A stretch of 64,000 bases of DNA from Planctomycetota bacterium (GCA_029978905.1 JAPOIM010000002.1:65507-129506); one strand, 5' to 3'. Numbered from the stretch's first letter, positions 42,157 through 46,946 are shown. Program-made: numbers and translations. Notes: generated by a model from the letters alone, not told the origin.

Positions 42157-43263
42157 TCACTCGAGCCGCTGCTGCCTGCGTCGCCATCGCCAGCCGCCGA
42201 TCCCGCCCAAGCCAGCAAGCAGGAGCCCCATCGTCGACGGCTCCGGCACGGGAGCCACCAACCGGAAGCCGGTATCGTAGTTGGCCGTCGTCACGGAGAT
42301 GTCCAAACCAGCCCCGGCACCAAATGCATTCAGGTTCCAAGCTCCACCGCGCAGGATCGCGCTGCCCGTTGAACCAGCCGTCGACGTCCATTCCGACACA
42401 TTACCAGTCTGGTCGAACGTGCCGTAGTAACTCGCGCTGCCCGAGTAGGACCCCACATCAGTGAGGTAGTTTTGCGTTGAATCAAGCGTACTGCTCTGCG
42501 TAAGCGAATACGTCCCGCTTGGCGCTGTACCGACATACACGTTCGCTTGATTTGGCGTACTCCCAACTGCGTTGCCAGGGGCGATGTCACTCTGCGTTGC
42601 GTAGTCGGTGTAGGTGCCCGTGCTCCCGTTGTAGTAAGCGGCTTTGTACCACTGATCCGATGTGGGAAGCGCATAGATGGGAGCCGCACTCGTGTTGGGA
42701 TTCGTTAGGTTCAGCGCAACTACACCCGTCGCTCCAGATAAGTTGTACGCCCCGTTCTCAGTCGTACTTGCAGCTTGCACCCCGGTGGATGGCTGCCCAT
42801 TCGCCATCCAATTCGCGAAGCGGGCGGCGTTGGACCAATTCACAAACGTTACTGGTCTATTCGCGGTCGTTGCCGCAGCGTACTGCGTGCCTCTTGGCCC
42901 CGTCGCGGAATACACGTACAGGTCACCAGTCGTCCCGTTTCCCGTCCGCGAGATCCCGCCATTTTGATTAGCGTCGTAAGACGTGTTGAAGATTGTCTCG
43001 CTGCTGGTCTTCGCTACGGCGTTGAGAAACTCAACGTACTGACCGATGGTCACTTCGTATTTGCTGATTTGATACGAAGTGGCAACCGCGCCATACCCGC
43101 CTGTATCAGCCGTGTTGCCCGGATTGCCGACGGTGACCATCGACATGGTGACGGCCGCGGCGTCCCGTGGCACTACGGCTGACGCAAGACACGTGAAGAC
43201 ACAAGCGACGCAGATCATTGCCCTTTTGGGCAATGAACGGCCAAAAAAAATGTCACAAACCAT
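42157..43263 (-). CDS. PEP-CTERM protein with FGE-sulfatase/SUMF1-like (lectin-type) domain
   Basis: Signal peptide; MVTVGNPGN, KYEVTIGQY.EFLN, RPVTFVNW.NAARFANW, LPTSDQWYKAAYY, DQTGNVSEW, RGGAW, GFRL; C-terminal VPEPST + TM + RWRRR. Confidence 0.92.
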   Translation of the reverse strand: MVCDIFFGRSLPKRAMICVACVFTCLASAVVPRDAAAVTMSMVTVGNPGNTADTGGYGAVATSYQISKYEVTIGQYVEFLNAVAKTSSETIFNTSYDANQNGGISRTGNGTTGDLYVYSATGPRGTQYAAATTANRPVTFVNWSNAARFANWMANGQPSTGVQAASTTENGAYNLSGATGVVALNLTNPNTSAAPIYALPTSDQWYKAAYYNGSTGTYTDYATQSDIAPGNAVGSTPNQANVYVGTAPSGTYSLTQSSTLDSTQNYLTDVGSYSGSASYYGTFDQTGNVSEWTSTAGSTGSAILRGGAWNLNAFGAGAGLDISVTTANYDTGFRLVAPVPEPSTMGLLLAGLGGIGGWRWRRRQQRLE

Positions 43264-43433
43264 TCCAACACGATGCCCTCAGCACCGCCCCCTAATCAAA
43301 AACCATGTTCCTAAAACAGTGTTTCGCGGGATAGCCGGGCAAAAACCCCGTTCAGCCAACTCCTGCCGCCGCGGCTAAAAAACCGCCTCGGCGAACGAGG
43401 AGAGAAGTCTCAACACGAACTGATGGATAAGGC

Positions 43434-43955
43434 TCAACCGAGCATAACCACCGCGAGAGCCACCACCGCAGCGCCCATGCTCACCGGCAGGGTGAGGATC
43501 GAGCGGGCGAGATCGCGGCCAGGGAGAATCATCTCCCGCTCGGCAGGCGTCATCTCGAGGAACTCCTCGAGGGCAGAGATCGATATCGGCTTGACCATTG
43601 AGTGGTCAGCGCCATGCTCAGTGGCTTCCCAATGACCGGGCTTGCCCGGGACTTCACTGACGATGGCCACACGCTGCTCGCCACCTTCAGTATCGGTGGC
43701 CTTGCTAGTCTCAAGGTGATGGCGAAGCAGTTCGACAAAGTCGAGGCCCGACATGTCATCAAGATCAGCAGCCACGAGCCAGGCATCGACCGATCGCCGC
43801 GACGCCAGAGCCAAACCTTCCTCTCCTGAACTTCTCAGGTGGAGATGGATCCGTCCTTCACGGGCACTGGCAGCAAGATCGTGATACGCGTCAAACCGTG
43901 GATCAACAACGACAACGTTTGGCGTGTGGATCGTCTTCGCGCTCTTGCTGACCAT
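43434..43955 (-). CDS. Atypical (pseudo-)receiver domain protein with C-terminal TM anchor
   Basis: VVVVDPR, DAWLVAADLDDMSGLDF, GADHSMVKPI; phospho-acceptor position is Ala; hydrophobic tail AAVVALAVVMLG. Confidence 0.72.
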   Translation of the reverse strand: MVSKSAKTIHTPNVVVVDPRFDAYHDLAASAREGRIHLHLRSSGEEGLALASRRSVDAWLVAADLDDMSGLDFVELLRHHLETSKATDTEGGEQRVAIVSEVPGKPGHWEATEHGADHSMVKPISISALEEFLEMTPAEREMILPGRDLARSILTLPVSMGAAVVALAVVMLG

Positions 43956-44006
43956 GATGAACTCCCTGGCTAAAAACCGAGTGAATGATTCGATGGATTG
44001 GTGATC

Positions 44007-44522
44007 TCAGAGAACGCCAGTGGCGGTCTCAACATCAGCGGTCGGCCGAAGGGCCGCTACGAGTTCCGCTGCGACTGGCTGCACGAGGTAGCCAGCAATG
44101 CCGGCCGAAAGAGCCTCTTGTTCTTCTTCGAGGCTGTAGTCGTCGGCCACCATGAAGATGCCGGCGTGACGAGCCTGCCCAACGCGACCGAGCGATCGGC
44201 GATGCCCTCGCAGGAACGGATCGACCTCGCCTTGGCTAACCTGATCCGCCAGCAGCGGCAGCAGGTCAAAACCTTCCATGTCGGGCAGGTCAGTGCTCAC
44301 CAGCCACACATCGGCTCGGAATCGCCTCGCCAACTTCAGGGCAGACTGTGCGTCGCAACAGAAGTGCAATCCGATCTCGCCATTCGTCGCGGCGTCAACG
44401 AAGTGAGCGTAACGATCGCAGCGCGGGTCAACGATCACCACTTCGCAGGCTTCGCGACTGGTGTCGGCAGGAAGCGATACGACGCTCTTTGCTGAACGGT
44501 CGTAGGCGTTGGGGAGGTTCAT
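44007..44522 (-). CDS. Atypical (pseudo-)receiver domain protein
   Basis: VVIVDPR, DVWLVSTDLPDMEGFDL, AGIAGYLVQPV; acceptor position is Ser and the conserved Lys is Gln. Confidence 0.72.
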   Translation of the reverse strand: MNLPNAYDRSAKSVVSLPADTSREACEVVIVDPRCDRYAHFVDAATNGEIGLHFCCDAQSALKLARRFRADVWLVSTDLPDMEGFDLLPLLADQVSQGEVDPFLRGHRRSLGRVGQARHAGIFMVADDYSLEEEQEALSAGIAGYLVQPVAAELVAALRPTADVETATGVL

Positions 44523-44586
44523 GGAGCGTTTCTCTGAAAGCGGTGGACGGAAATGCGATTGGAAGATGCGGGTTCAAATCAGCGGC

Positions 44587-44970
44587 TCAGTCGTCAACAC
44601 CAACGGTGGGACGGGAGGCGGAGGTCTTCGACGCCACGGCAGCTCGCAGGGTGTCCCAGCTCGACGTCATCGGAGGCACACCAAACAGGTCACCAACCAC
44701 GGCTGGGAGCACGGCAGCCGAGATACCCGTCACCGAACGAGCGGCGACCACCTGCTCGGCTTCGGCACGAGTCAGCCCCATCACCGAGATCACCGCTGTG
44801 TCGCTGAGATCAAGCGTCAACGAACCACTCGGGAGCGGCACGGACAGAAACGTGGGCTCGATGCCGAGGGCCTTTCGGCTCCCTGCGTCGTCAGCAAAGG
44901 CAGTCGTGCCACATGCAAGCGTCGCGACAACCGCAGCGACCAACAGTTTGAATGAAGATGCACGTGACAT
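44587..44970 (-). CDS. Small secreted hypothetical protein (127 aa)
   Basis: Signal peptide ending AFA-DD; AGGGG upstream of the ATG; co-oriented with the two receiver genes. Confidence 0.65.
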   Translation of the reverse strand: MSRASSFKLLVAAVVATLACGTTAFADDAGSRKALGIEPTFLSVPLPSGSLTLDLSDTAVISVMGLTRAEAEQVVAARSVTGISAAVLPAVVGDLFGVPPMTSSWDTLRAAVASKTSASRPTVGVDD

Positions 44971-45058
44971 GAGGAACCCCTGAAAATGCTTGAACCAGTG
45001 ATGAATGCGACCAAGAAACCCGACGAACCGCGTGCACTCGGCACGCCCTGACCACGGC

Positions 45059-45187
45059 CTACGAGACGACGGAGATCAGTGACAAAAACGCGACAATCGG
45101 CACCACACAGCAGAGGATGTCTGCATGCGTGAGCTGCAAGGAATCAGCCAGCGACGAGGCTGAACCTGCCTTCCCACGAAAGTTCAT
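45059..45187 (-). CDS. Unannotated 42-aa small membrane protein
   Basis: AGGAG 7 nt before ATG 45187; MNFRGKAGSASSLADSLQLTHADILCCVVPIVAFLSLISVVS*; about 70 nt downstream of the predicted sigma54 start site. Confidence 0.55.
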   Translation of the reverse strand: MNFRGKAGSASSLADSLQLTHADILCCVVPIVAFLSLISVVS

Positions 45188-45267
45188 GAGCGAACTCCTA
45201 TTTCAAAAACGGTGTGAACGATCCATCAGCGGACGGTGCGTAAGCACTACCTGCTGTTAGTTGCATT

Positions 45268-45284
45268 TGCAGATCGCGTGCCAA
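45268..45284 (-). promoter_or_regulatory. Sigma54 (RpoN) -24/-12 promoter
   Basis: Minus strand TTGGCACGCGATCTGCA: perfect TGGCACG, GG-N10-GC spacing, one mismatch (C for T) in TTGC. Confidence 0.75.
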
Positions 45285-45304
45285 ACTGAACGCACTCGAC
45301 ATAG

Positions 45305-45356
45305 AAAATGAAAAAACGTCGTTTCACTCGAGAAAAAACGCATTCTCCAAGAAAAA
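45305..45356. promoter_or_regulatory. Phased A-tracts (intrinsically bent DNA)
   Basis: GAAAAAACG at 45310 and 45332 (22 bp apart), GAAAAAGG at 45351, AAAA at 45305. Lies between the promoter and the palindrome array. Confidence 0.5.
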
Positions 45357-45382
45357 GGCAGCGAAGACCCCCTCTTAGGTAG

Positions 45383-45509
45383 TGGAGCGAATCGCACCAC
45401 CCCCTGGAGCGATTCGCTCCAGCCCCCCCCCCTAAAAGACCTAAAGGTGGAGCGATTCGCTCCACCCCCCTGGTGCGATTCGCTCCACCCCCTGGTGCGA
45501 ATCGCGCCA
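45383..45509. repeat. Array of five 17-bp palindromes, consensus TGGWGCGA-W-TCGCDCCA, joined by C-runs
   Basis: Units start at 45383, 45405, 45448, 45471 and 45493 (spacings 22, 43, 23, 22 bp). Units 2 and 3 are identical: TGGAGCGATTCGCTCCA. Confidence 0.92.
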
Positions 45510-45587
45510 CCTTTGATCACCGGAGCGACCGTCTTGCGGCTATCCTCGCAGTCGCGGTTTTGATCACGACCCAAGAGCAGGTTCCCA

Positions 45588-46946
45588 ATGCACCCCACCG
45601 AAACACCGACTGCAGAGGGCAAGAGGCTCGCTCCCGTGCTGGGCACGTGGCAACTGTGGGGGCTCGCTGTCGGGCTCGTGATTTCCGGCGAGTACTTTGG
45701 CTGGAGCTACGGATGGGCCCAGGCAGGCACGCTCGGGTTCCTGGTGACCACGCTCGTCGTCGCGGTGATGTACACGAGCTTCATCTTTAGTTTCACCGAA
45801 CTCACCACCGCCATTCCAGATGCGGGGGGCCCGTTCGCCTACGCAAGGCGGGCATTCGGCCCCCTCGGCGGGGCCATCGCCGGCTGGGCCACGTTGATCG
45901 AGTTTGTGTTTGCCCCGCCAGCGATCGCCCTCGCCATCGGGGCTTACGTGGCCGTGCAGTTCCCTGGTCTCGAGCCTGCCTGGACGGCCGTGGGGGCCTA
46001 CGCCATCTTCATGCTCCTCAACATCCTCGGCGTCACGATCGCCGCGAACTTTGAGCTGTTTGTGACCCTGCTGGCGGTTGGCGAACTGCTCGTGTTTATG
46101 GGGGTGGTCGCCCCGGGTTTCTCGTGGGACCATTTCAAGGCGGGCGGATGGGCCGGCAGCGATCAGTTCAGCCCCGAGGCTGTCGGCGGGATCCTCGCCG
46201 CCACGCCCTTTGCCATCTGGTTCTTCCTGGCGATCGAGGGGGTGGCAATGGCCGCGGAAGAAGCCCGCGATCCGCACCGCACCATTCCACGGGCCTACAT
46301 TGGCGGCATGCTCACGCTCCTCGCGCTCGCGCTCGGCGTGATGTTTTTTGCCGGCGGCGTGGGGAACTGGTCGGAACTGGCCAACATCAACGACCCACTG
46401 CCCCAAGCGATGAAGAAAGTGGTTGGCGAGGCGAGCGGCTGGCTCCACATGCTCGTCTGGCTCGGCCTGTTTGGGCTCGTCGCGTCCTTTCACGGGATCA
46501 TCATGGGCTACTCGCGGCAGATCTTCGCCATGGCCCGCGCTGGCTACCTGCCGAGGCGACTAGCGATGCTCCACCCCACCCGCGGCACTCCCTGGGTGGC
46601 GATCCTCGCCGGCGGTGTCGTGGGGATCGCAGCCATCTTTAGCGACTCGGTCGTCGTCCTTGGTGGGCAGCCGTTGACCGCCAACATCGTCACCATGGCC
46701 GTGCTCGGCGCGATGGTGATGTACATCTCCGCCATGGCGAGCCTGTTTGCCTTGCGCCGTCGTGAACCCGAGTTGCCTCGCTCCTTTCCAGCCCTCGGCT
46801 ACCCATGGGTGCCCGGCCTCGCGCTCGCCTTGGCCGTCTTTTGCCTCGGCACCGTGATCTGGTCCAACCCCGGCGTGAGCCTGGTCTTCGGTGGCTTGAT
46901 GACAGCGGCGGTGGCAGGGCACATGCTCTTTGGCCTCGAGCGGTGA
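45588..46946 (+). CDS. eat: Ethanolamine permease (APC family)
   Basis: LWGLAVGLVISGEYFGWSYG, PDAGGPFAYARRAFG, PFAIWFFLAIEG, ASFHGII; 12 TM helices; directly upstream of eutB. Confidence 0.93.
   Translation: MHPTETPTAEGKRLAPVLGTWQLWGLAVGLVISGEYFGWSYGWAQAGTLGFLVTTLVVAVMYTSFIFSFTELTTAIPDAGGPFAYARRAFGPLGGAIAGWATLIEFVFAPPAIALAIGAYVAVQFPGLEPAWTAVGAYAIFMLLNILGVTIAANFELFVTLLAVGELLVFMGVVAPGFSWDHFKAGGWAGSDQFSPEAVGGILAATPFAIWFFLAIEGVAMAAEEARDPHRTIPRAYIGGMLTLLALALGVMFFAGGVGNWSELANINDPLPQAMKKVVGEASGWLHMLVWLGLFGLVASFHGIIMGYSRQIFAMARAGYLPRRLAMLHPTRGTPWVAILAGGVVGIAAIFSDSVVVLGGQPLTANIVTMAVLGAMVMYISAMASLFALRRREPELPRSFPALGYPWVPGLALALAVFCLGTVIWSNPGVSLVFGGLMTAAVAGHMLFGLER

Follow-up and report, generated by a model that had tools for sequence, protein, structure and literature searches.

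The locus

The window, a 64,000-nucleotide stretch of DNA from a Planctomycetota bacterium, lies within contig C158 of a draft genome (G000; 4.26 Mb, 235 contigs, 64% G+C, 94% complete). At 45268-45509, it holds a leftward-pointing sigma-54 promoter, a spacer rich in A/T tracts, and an array of five 17-bp palindromes. To the left of the promoter lies a minus-strand operon that encodes a small membrane peptide, a lipoprotein, and two pseudo-receivers. To the right, the array ends at 45509; the ATG of eat follows 79 bp further, at 45588. Pfam assigns the divergent genes on this side to an amino-acid permease (eat), EutB, and EutC. The features of the locus are as follows:

42157..43263, minus strand: FGE-sulfatase-domain protein with a PEP-CTERM tail, 368 aa (Pfam PF03781 and PF07589); downstream of the operon, after a gap
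43434..43955, minus strand: pseudo-receiver 2, 173 aa, with a C-terminal membrane helix; Response_reg match sub-threshold; marker of the conserved operon
44007..44522, minus strand: pseudo-receiver 1, 171 aa; Response_reg match below the Pfam threshold
44587..44970, minus strand: lipoprotein, 127 aa, lipobox LACG; only in this genus's versions of the operon
45059..45187, minus strand: membrane peptide, 42 aa, MNFRGKAG...ILCCVVPIVAFLSLISVVS; leading gene of the transcript, with an AGGAG ribosome-binding site in front and RNA contigs over it
45268..45284, minus strand: sigma-54 (-24/-12) promoter TTGGCACGCGATCTGCA; matches the consensus, with rpoN in the genome
45285..45382, no strand: spacer rich in A/T tracts (by A+T content and tract count), presumed region of intrinsic bending or looping
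45383..45399, no strand: palindrome 1 (promoter-proximal), TGGAGCGAATCGCACCA; centre at about -134 from the predicted transcription start site (TSS)
45405..45421, no strand: palindrome 2, TGGAGCGATTCGCTCCA; centre at about -156
45448..45464, no strand: palindrome 3, TGGAGCGATTCGCTCCA; centre at about -199
45471..45487, no strand: palindrome 4, TGGTGCGATTCGCTCCA; centre at about -222
45493..45509, no strand: palindrome 5 (distal), TGGTGCGAATCGCGCCA, one mismatch; centre at about -244

Promoter, spacer, and array

On the minus strand, 45268-45284 reads TTGGCACGCGATCTGCA, a sigma-54 (-24/-12) element. Its GG (45282-45281) and GC (45270-45269) stand at the exact GG-N10-GC spacing that an earlier note on this DNA had described, and TGGCACGCGATCTGCA at 45268-45283 is a good match to TGGCAC-N5-TTGCW, also with exact spacing. 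The predicted TSS lies leftwards at about 45257, some 12 nt past the GC. The promoter fits the consensus of 70 orthologous promoters, TGGCACG-N4-(G/T)TGCA. The genome encodes 11 Sigma54_activat proteins (bacterial enhancer-binding proteins, bEBPs) as well as rpoN (C158:52780-53253; Sigma54_DBD). This sole rpoN shares the contig of the locus and lies about 12 kb before window position 1.

The spacer (about 98-99 bp) is 57% A+T and has 4 tracts of at least four A or T; 95-bp stretches drawn at random from the genome have means of 36% A+T and 0.27 tracts. A runs are present at approximately 45304-45308, 45311-45316, 45333-45338, and 45352-45356, in agreement with the A-tracts previously placed at 45310, 45332, and 45351. 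Over 26 array-promoter spacers, the mean is 2.5 A/T tracts (at least 4 nt) per ~100 bp against a background of 0.27; this roughly 10-fold enrichment is an upper estimate, because the background takes in coding DNA.

The palindromes start at 45383, 45405, 45448, 45471, and 45493, with centre-to-centre spacings of 22, 43, 23, and 22 bp, exactly as first reported. The motif of the regulon is TGGNGCGAWTCGCNCCA; TGGWGCGAWTCGCWCCA matches four of the five window palindromes exactly and the remaining one with a single mismatch. In this genus, the repeating unit is 22 bp long and consists of the 17-bp palindrome and a 5-bp spacer, which is a C-run in the window. Duplication of one such unit would keep the phase, and we infer that the window array holds one unit more than its orthologues in the genome G001. 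The earlier note also saw a second, NtrC-like dyad centred on the C-runs. It is there in the window, but the inter-unit spacers of other arrays are unrelated (GTGCTCGGCGCCAGG in the array on contig C43, GTGGA in G001). Because the dyad is gone where other sequence separates the units, it is a by-product of their adjacency. The strong fold predicted for the array region is a trivial consequence of the palindromes. A known RNA family and a CRISPR-like array were rejected as explanations, with Rfam matches that are sub-threshold and at chance level only.

The operon and its expression

The 42-aa peptide has a C-terminal motif that is common to several genera (...SLTxADxLLCxVPIxLFLSxVSxV). In relatives from at least 6 genera, the array, a spacer of ~100 bp, the sigma-54 promoter, a small peptide, and the two pseudo-receivers follow one another in this order. 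Co-transcription of the FGE-sulfatase/PEP-CTERM gene with the operon is uncertain.

Three metatranscriptomes hold this stretch of DNA, and the operon is expressed in situ. In two RNA-Seq runs, assembled contigs cover 43281-45222 only: the pseudo-receivers, the lipoprotein, the peptide ORF, and the leader. Neither run has RNA contigs over the array, the eut genes, or the PEP-CTERM gene. Between the rightmost RNA contig and the predicted TSS, 35 nt are left uncovered. Assembled contigs do not define 5' ends; they are consistent with a start near 45257, which they cannot map, and with eut not being co-expressed. The third run, X8, possibly contains DNA and covers the whole region, promoter included.

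Arrays and targets across the genome

The 17-mer occurs about 30 times in the genome with up to 2 mismatches, and 20 of these copies group into five tandem arrays, located on C12, C43, C110, C158, and C219. Genome-wide, TGGWGCGAWTCGC has 17+17 matches and the reversed-pattern control has 0. All five arrays stand 86-101 bp upstream of an outward-pointing TGGCRC-N5-NTGCA (-24/-12). A loose sigma-54 pattern has 412 matches in the genome, which gives a rough chance estimate of ~0.006 per array; with a correctly oriented sigma-54-like 16-mer at 86-101 bp from each of five arrays, chance is excluded.

A paralogue of the operon, headed by a four-site array of its own, is found on contig C110, and the C12 array precedes the gene of a 251-aa PEP-CTERM protein; the genes 3' of the C219 and C43 arrays run off the contig ends. 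PF07589 tails are found in the C12 and C110 targets, in the window gene at 42157-43263, and in the targets of several relatives, where further arrays lie upstream of PEP-CTERM proteins of several kinds. The regulon is the pseudo-receiver operon together with PEP-CTERM surface-protein genes; it counts about 5 promoters in this genome, and family genomes have 1-20 sites each. The idea that every PEP-CTERM gene is a target was rejected: most of the 13 found by pattern are without the motif. Two PEP-CTERM genes without the palindrome, on C42 (upstream of 891) and C193 (upstream of 20368), share a different block, GAAGGAGCAAGCTACTGACCGCGTGCGAC...GTCGCAACA, which suggests a second regulatory motif for such genes.

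Other arrays have features of their own. Arrays and their targets often sit at contig ends (C12:7109-7187, C43:2930-3328, and C219:1-571 in this genome; C223, C406, and C408 in G005; C16 in G008). Copy numbers from MAGs are lower bounds, because repeats and paralogous targets break short-read assemblies. At C47:461-799 of the window's genome lies a third, partial paralogue of pseudo-receiver 2 (67% identity over residues 2-110); it ends exactly in a copy of the palindrome, TTGAGCGATTCGCACCA at 783-799, and may be a chimeric contig or the product of recombination at an array. Short mini-palindromes, CCCC(C)-N3-5-GGGG(G), lie beside or between the 17-bp units of some arrays (G004 locus L041:5377-5510; C110:4245-4260 and C12:7090-7108 here); they are not universal. 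In G001, loci L033/L034 (contig C21:193000-222000) hold four two-site arrays within 28 kb, each with a spacing of 66 bp and each upstream of a very large glycine-rich secreted protein, at least one of which has a PEP-CTERM tail.

Conservation and helical phasing

A search of public genomes, one per species, with an alignment of pseudo-receiver 2 yielded 80 loci. Their labels name the lineage: Pirellulales, Planctomycetaceae, or Planctomycetota for the MAGs of nearly all loci, and Candidatus Kuenenia, Planctomicrobium, Chitinophagaceae, or just bacterium for about a dozen. Where enough upstream sequence was available, a -24/-12 element in the right orientation has 1-5 palindromes 70-330 bp upstream of it at 70 of 72 loci; the same test in the opposite orientation succeeds at 3 of 69. 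Conservation upstream of orthologues, which had been proposed as a check on the locus, is thus borne out. Arrays of two (32) or three sites (29) prevail among the 70; four sites occur in 6, one site in 2, and five sites in 1.

The spacing of the sites is periodic. In these 70 arrays, the 112 distances between neighbors are 21-25 bp (n=24), 29-34 bp (n=44), or 40-45 bp (n=44), and the gaps between these groups, 26-28 and 35-39 bp, are empty; for a period of 10.5-10.8 bp, the mean resultant length reaches 0.80-0.81. These clusters at about 22, 32, and 43 bp, with a period of ~10.7 bp, extend to these 70 arrays the earlier observation that the window's sites face one side of the helix. Within this genome and its close relatives, array spacings are 22-25, 31-35, 40-44, 60, and 66 bp. 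Periodicity also holds for the distance between the proximal site and the promoter (R = 0.6 at 11-11.5 bp), as expected if a bound activator has to face the polymerase across a loop. Confined to spacings of 2, 3, and 4 helical turns, the arrays offer a natural data set of unusual clarity on enhancer phasing. At G016 L048:5095-5152, a single palindrome lies ~26 bp downstream, not upstream, of a sigma-54-like element; it could be a site for another promoter or a repressive arrangement.

Candidate activators

Activators of this kind are bEBPs, and we collected them from 12 genomes of the family, 6 of which are motif-positive, with orthologues assigned by reciprocal best hits. Six of the 11 bEBPs of the window's genome are core proteins, present in 12 of 12 genomes. 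The PspF-type and C11 bEBPs are missing from most motif-positive genomes of this set, the C44 bEBP is also present in motif-negative G011, and the C167 bEBP in motif-negative G011 and G012. Of all 11, just one fits the genus profile of the motif in these 12 genomes: a receiver-less bEBP encoded at C213:42735-44117.

The C213 protein was then profiled in 121 family genomes; the profiles of the other ten bEBPs cover the 12 genomes only. Motif and C213 orthologue are both present in 51 genomes and both absent from 64. The 6 mismatches are mostly incomplete MAGs. Two genomes have the motif and no orthologue (G058 and G084, 74-76% complete), and 4 have the orthologue and no motif (G003, G019, G023, and G044, the last three 75-87% complete). 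In G003, which is without an exact motif, the operon stands behind a degenerate three-site array and TGGCACGCAGTCTGCA; in G019, the target operon is present. Fisher's exact test gives p = 1e-26, a value uncorrected for phylogeny. In genera g8 and g9, nearly all members are without motif and without C213 orthologue; G046, G123, and G047 are motif-positive and are the only g8/g9 genomes with the orthologue. The fourth motif-positive genome of these genera, G084 (g9), has a five-copy array at C280:7829-7955, and no C213 orthologue was detected in it. With this MAG at 76% completeness, the assembly may have missed the gene; otherwise, G084 is a counter-example.

The C213 protein is built of Sigma54_activat, AAA_lid_14, and HTH_8 domains and has no sensory or receiver domain; its first ~75 residues look disordered. 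It has GSFTGA in place of the canonical GAFTGA loop, which counts against it as the activator, and its Walker A sequence is GPSGTGKE. At all 7 loci examined, the orthologues lie between an LpxA-like gene and a divergent Peripla_BP_5 gene, and at 3 of the 7 the 1.8-kb flank reaches the start of a chemoreceptor gene after the Peripla_BP_5 gene. In the window's genome, this chemoreceptor has dCache, HAMP, and MCP domains, and a CheR-TPR gene is next. The PspF-like bEBP was rejected as activator: it is encoded 1.5 kb upstream of an array in G001, but this synteny is not kept in the window's genome, and the gene is missing from most motif-positive genomes. A search of the neighborhoods of array loci for bEBP genes (GAFTGA plus Walker A motif) found this G001 case only.

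Interpretation and alternatives

The 17-bp palindromes are very likely upstream activator sequences (UAS), that is, an enhancer for a bEBP that drives the promoter at 45268-45284. Context, conservation, and copy counts strongly support the core of the earlier note, an enhancer-bend-promoter layout with a motif that its author did not recognize. The note had set few RpoN-linked copies, as expected of an enhancer, against many copies and a RAYT gene, as expected of REP or BIME elements. Selfish or structural repeats of this type, with no regulatory role, would also be palindromic and tandem; GTAG precedes unit 1, and arrays often coincide with assembly breaks at contig ends. Yet the exact motif is found in 53 of 121 family genomes with a maximum of 20 copies in any of them, not tens to hundreds; of 16 genomes from other families of the order, 1 has a single copy and 15 have none. 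Every array lies 5' of a sigma-54 promoter rather than in a 3'-intergenic position, and position and phase are kept across genera. The RAYT profile (Y1 transposase, PF01797) has 0 matches in the window's genome, 94% complete, and did match in control genomes. Few promoter-tied copies and the lack of a RAYT gene decide for an enhancer over REP; copy number and context refute the repeat explanation. Nor is the array likely to serve both directions. Ethanolamine operons of Pseudomonas are controlled by a sigma-54 activator, EatR. The array is only 79 bp from the eat start codon, and the earlier note held that it could also regulate the divergent eat-eutBC genes. Such bidirectional control is very improbable, since 45510-45588 contains no GG-N10-GC facing eut, a simple scan found no sigma-70-like site, the orthologous arrays in G001 adjoin unrelated genes, and the two runs that express the operon have no eut RNA contigs. 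A direct repeat TTTGATCAC (at ~45512 and ~45559) and a terminator-like hairpin (45534-45557) within 45510-45588 may represent eut-specific control unrelated to the array.

The remaining alternatives concern the protein that would bind the palindromes. They could bind a non-AAA+ accessory protein (a repressor, an anti-activator, or an architectural protein), with the bEBP acting elsewhere or from solution. The G016 palindrome just downstream of a sigma-54-like element and the CCCC-N3-5-GGGG mini-dyads that flank units in some arrays would suit such a protein. However, a length of 17 bp, a position ~90-250 bp upstream, phasing, and multiplicity are typical of NtrC-family UAS, and no other conserved element is evident between array and promoter; we consider an accessory protein improbable. 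For an enhancer, the question becomes which bEBP binds it. Co-occurrence with the motif points to the C213 protein, which is probably the activator. It is possible, though we think it doubtful, that a different bEBP (C44, C167, or one of the six core proteins) binds the array and that the C213 correlation comes from belonging to one and the same accessory gene set. All of these bEBPs are present in every tested motif-positive genome, the C213-type gene is never adjacent to an array, and any gene of the same accessory module would give the same co-occurrence pattern. The HTH regions are equally conserved in all three accessory orthogroups, and HTH conservation was discarded as an uninformative discriminator among the candidates. 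Against a different bEBP stand the occurrence of C44 in motif-negative G011 and of C167 in motif-negative G011 and G012, the presence of the core bEBPs in all motif-negative genomes, and the way in which C213 tracks the motif in 121 genomes, even inside the mostly negative g8 and g9.

Proposed mechanism

In an enhancer reading of the locus, activator dimers would bind the dyads through a Fis-type HTH. Because the sites lie on the same helix face (~2, 3, or 4 turns apart), neighboring dimers could assemble an active AAA+ hexamer. The A/T-tract spacer would bend the DNA so that the hexamer touches the sigma-54 holoenzyme ~110 bp away, and ATP hydrolysis would open the presumably RpoN-dependent promoter. 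The transcript would then run leftwards from ~45257 through the 42-aa peptide, the lipoprotein, the two pseudo-receivers, and possibly the PEP-CTERM protein.

We tentatively extend this reading to a circuit not described before in planctomycetes, in which the array would be the cis-element and the receiver-less bEBP would turn a chemosensory-type input into sigma-54 transcription. The input may come via the Peripla_BP_5 protein, the dCache chemoreceptor, and, in the window's genome, also the CheR-TPR methyltransferase. The targets would be of two kinds: a feedback operon, whose 42-aa peptide and two pseudo-receivers may modulate the activator in trans, and PEP-CTERM/exosortase cargo. Output would be tuned in evolution by gain or loss of the phase-keeping 22-bp unit (two turns).

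Comparison with known systems

Outside the Proteobacteria, sigma-54 regulons are mostly inferred from promoters alone, and few pairs of activator and site are known; for Planctomycetes, the searchable literature describes none. Nor does that literature contain a description of this motif or regulon: a full-text search for the motif letters returned primers and unrelated matches only. The motif defines a compact regulon that is computationally recognizable in dozens of uncultured Pirellulales species, and it yields a specific, experimentally tractable candidate activator-site pair. It also extends the tie between sigma-54 and exosortase cargo to a second phylum, where the motif is not that of PrsR and the activator is probably of a different type. 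Judged on every sequence-level criterion, the element should work like an NtrC-family enhancer. It is not a PrsR box, an NtrC site, or a REP element, because the defining features of each were tested and are not those found here.

The closest parallel in terms of targets is the proteobacterial PEP-CTERM box associated with PrsR/PrsK/PrsT, whose motif 1 is a 17-nt sequence terminating in TTTACA (Haft et al. 2006, PMC1569441); in Aquincola, a PEP-CTERM gene has been shown to depend on RpoN (PMC9850573). Both systems have a 17-nt upstream motif that is sometimes repeated, a spacer, a sigma-54 -24/-12 element, and PEP-CTERM genes, and in both the activator was inferred from a DNA motif's phylogenetic profile. 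They differ in the motif itself (TTTACA at its end there, TGGNGCGAWTCGCNCCA here), in the spacer (mean 63 nt there vs ~80-140 nt here), and in the phylum, here Planctomycetota. In addition, the candidate activator here is without a receiver domain, the core target is the pseudo-receiver operon, and most PEP-CTERM genes of this genome are without the motif. No PrsR orthologue was found in the genome, where TIGR02915 gives at most 371.9 bits and its cut-off is 502.6. With a different motif and no PrsR, the PrsR/PrsK PEP-CTERM box was rejected.

NtrC sites have the half-sites TGCACC-N5-GGTGCA, unlike TGGAGCGA-W-TCGCTCCA here. None of the genome's bEBPs reaches the TIGR01818/NF008176 cut-offs for an NtrC orthologue (best TIGR01818 score 437 vs 558.6), and the targets here are not nitrogen-assimilation genes. 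An NtrC binding site was rejected on the half-sites, the lack of an NtrC orthologue, and the C-run dyad, which is unconserved between arrays. The earlier note held that the array has more sites than usual; five is the top of the range in this regulon, but the NtrC enhancer of E. coli glnAp2 also has five sites, two strong and three weak (PMC5159524). The architecture is otherwise alike: five 17-bp dyads ~100-250 bp upstream of a sigma-54 promoter, with dimers that form a hexamer and DNA looping, as proposed here. Unlike those of glnAp2, all five sites of the window are near-consensus and regularly phased.

Several receiver-less bEBPs are controlled in trans, as in the PspF/PspA and HrpRS/HrpV systems, and Che3-CrdA of Myxococcus is a chemosensory-to-bEBP pathway. 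The candidate here resembles them in having only AAA+ and HTH domains and in lying beside an MCP/CheR/binding-protein cluster, and the regulon likewise encodes small regulator-like proteins. It differs from them in that neither a PspA/HrpV-like partner nor a phosphorylation route was identified here. The true PspF-type gene of this genome is a separate one, on contig C20, and scores above the TIGR02974 cut-off.
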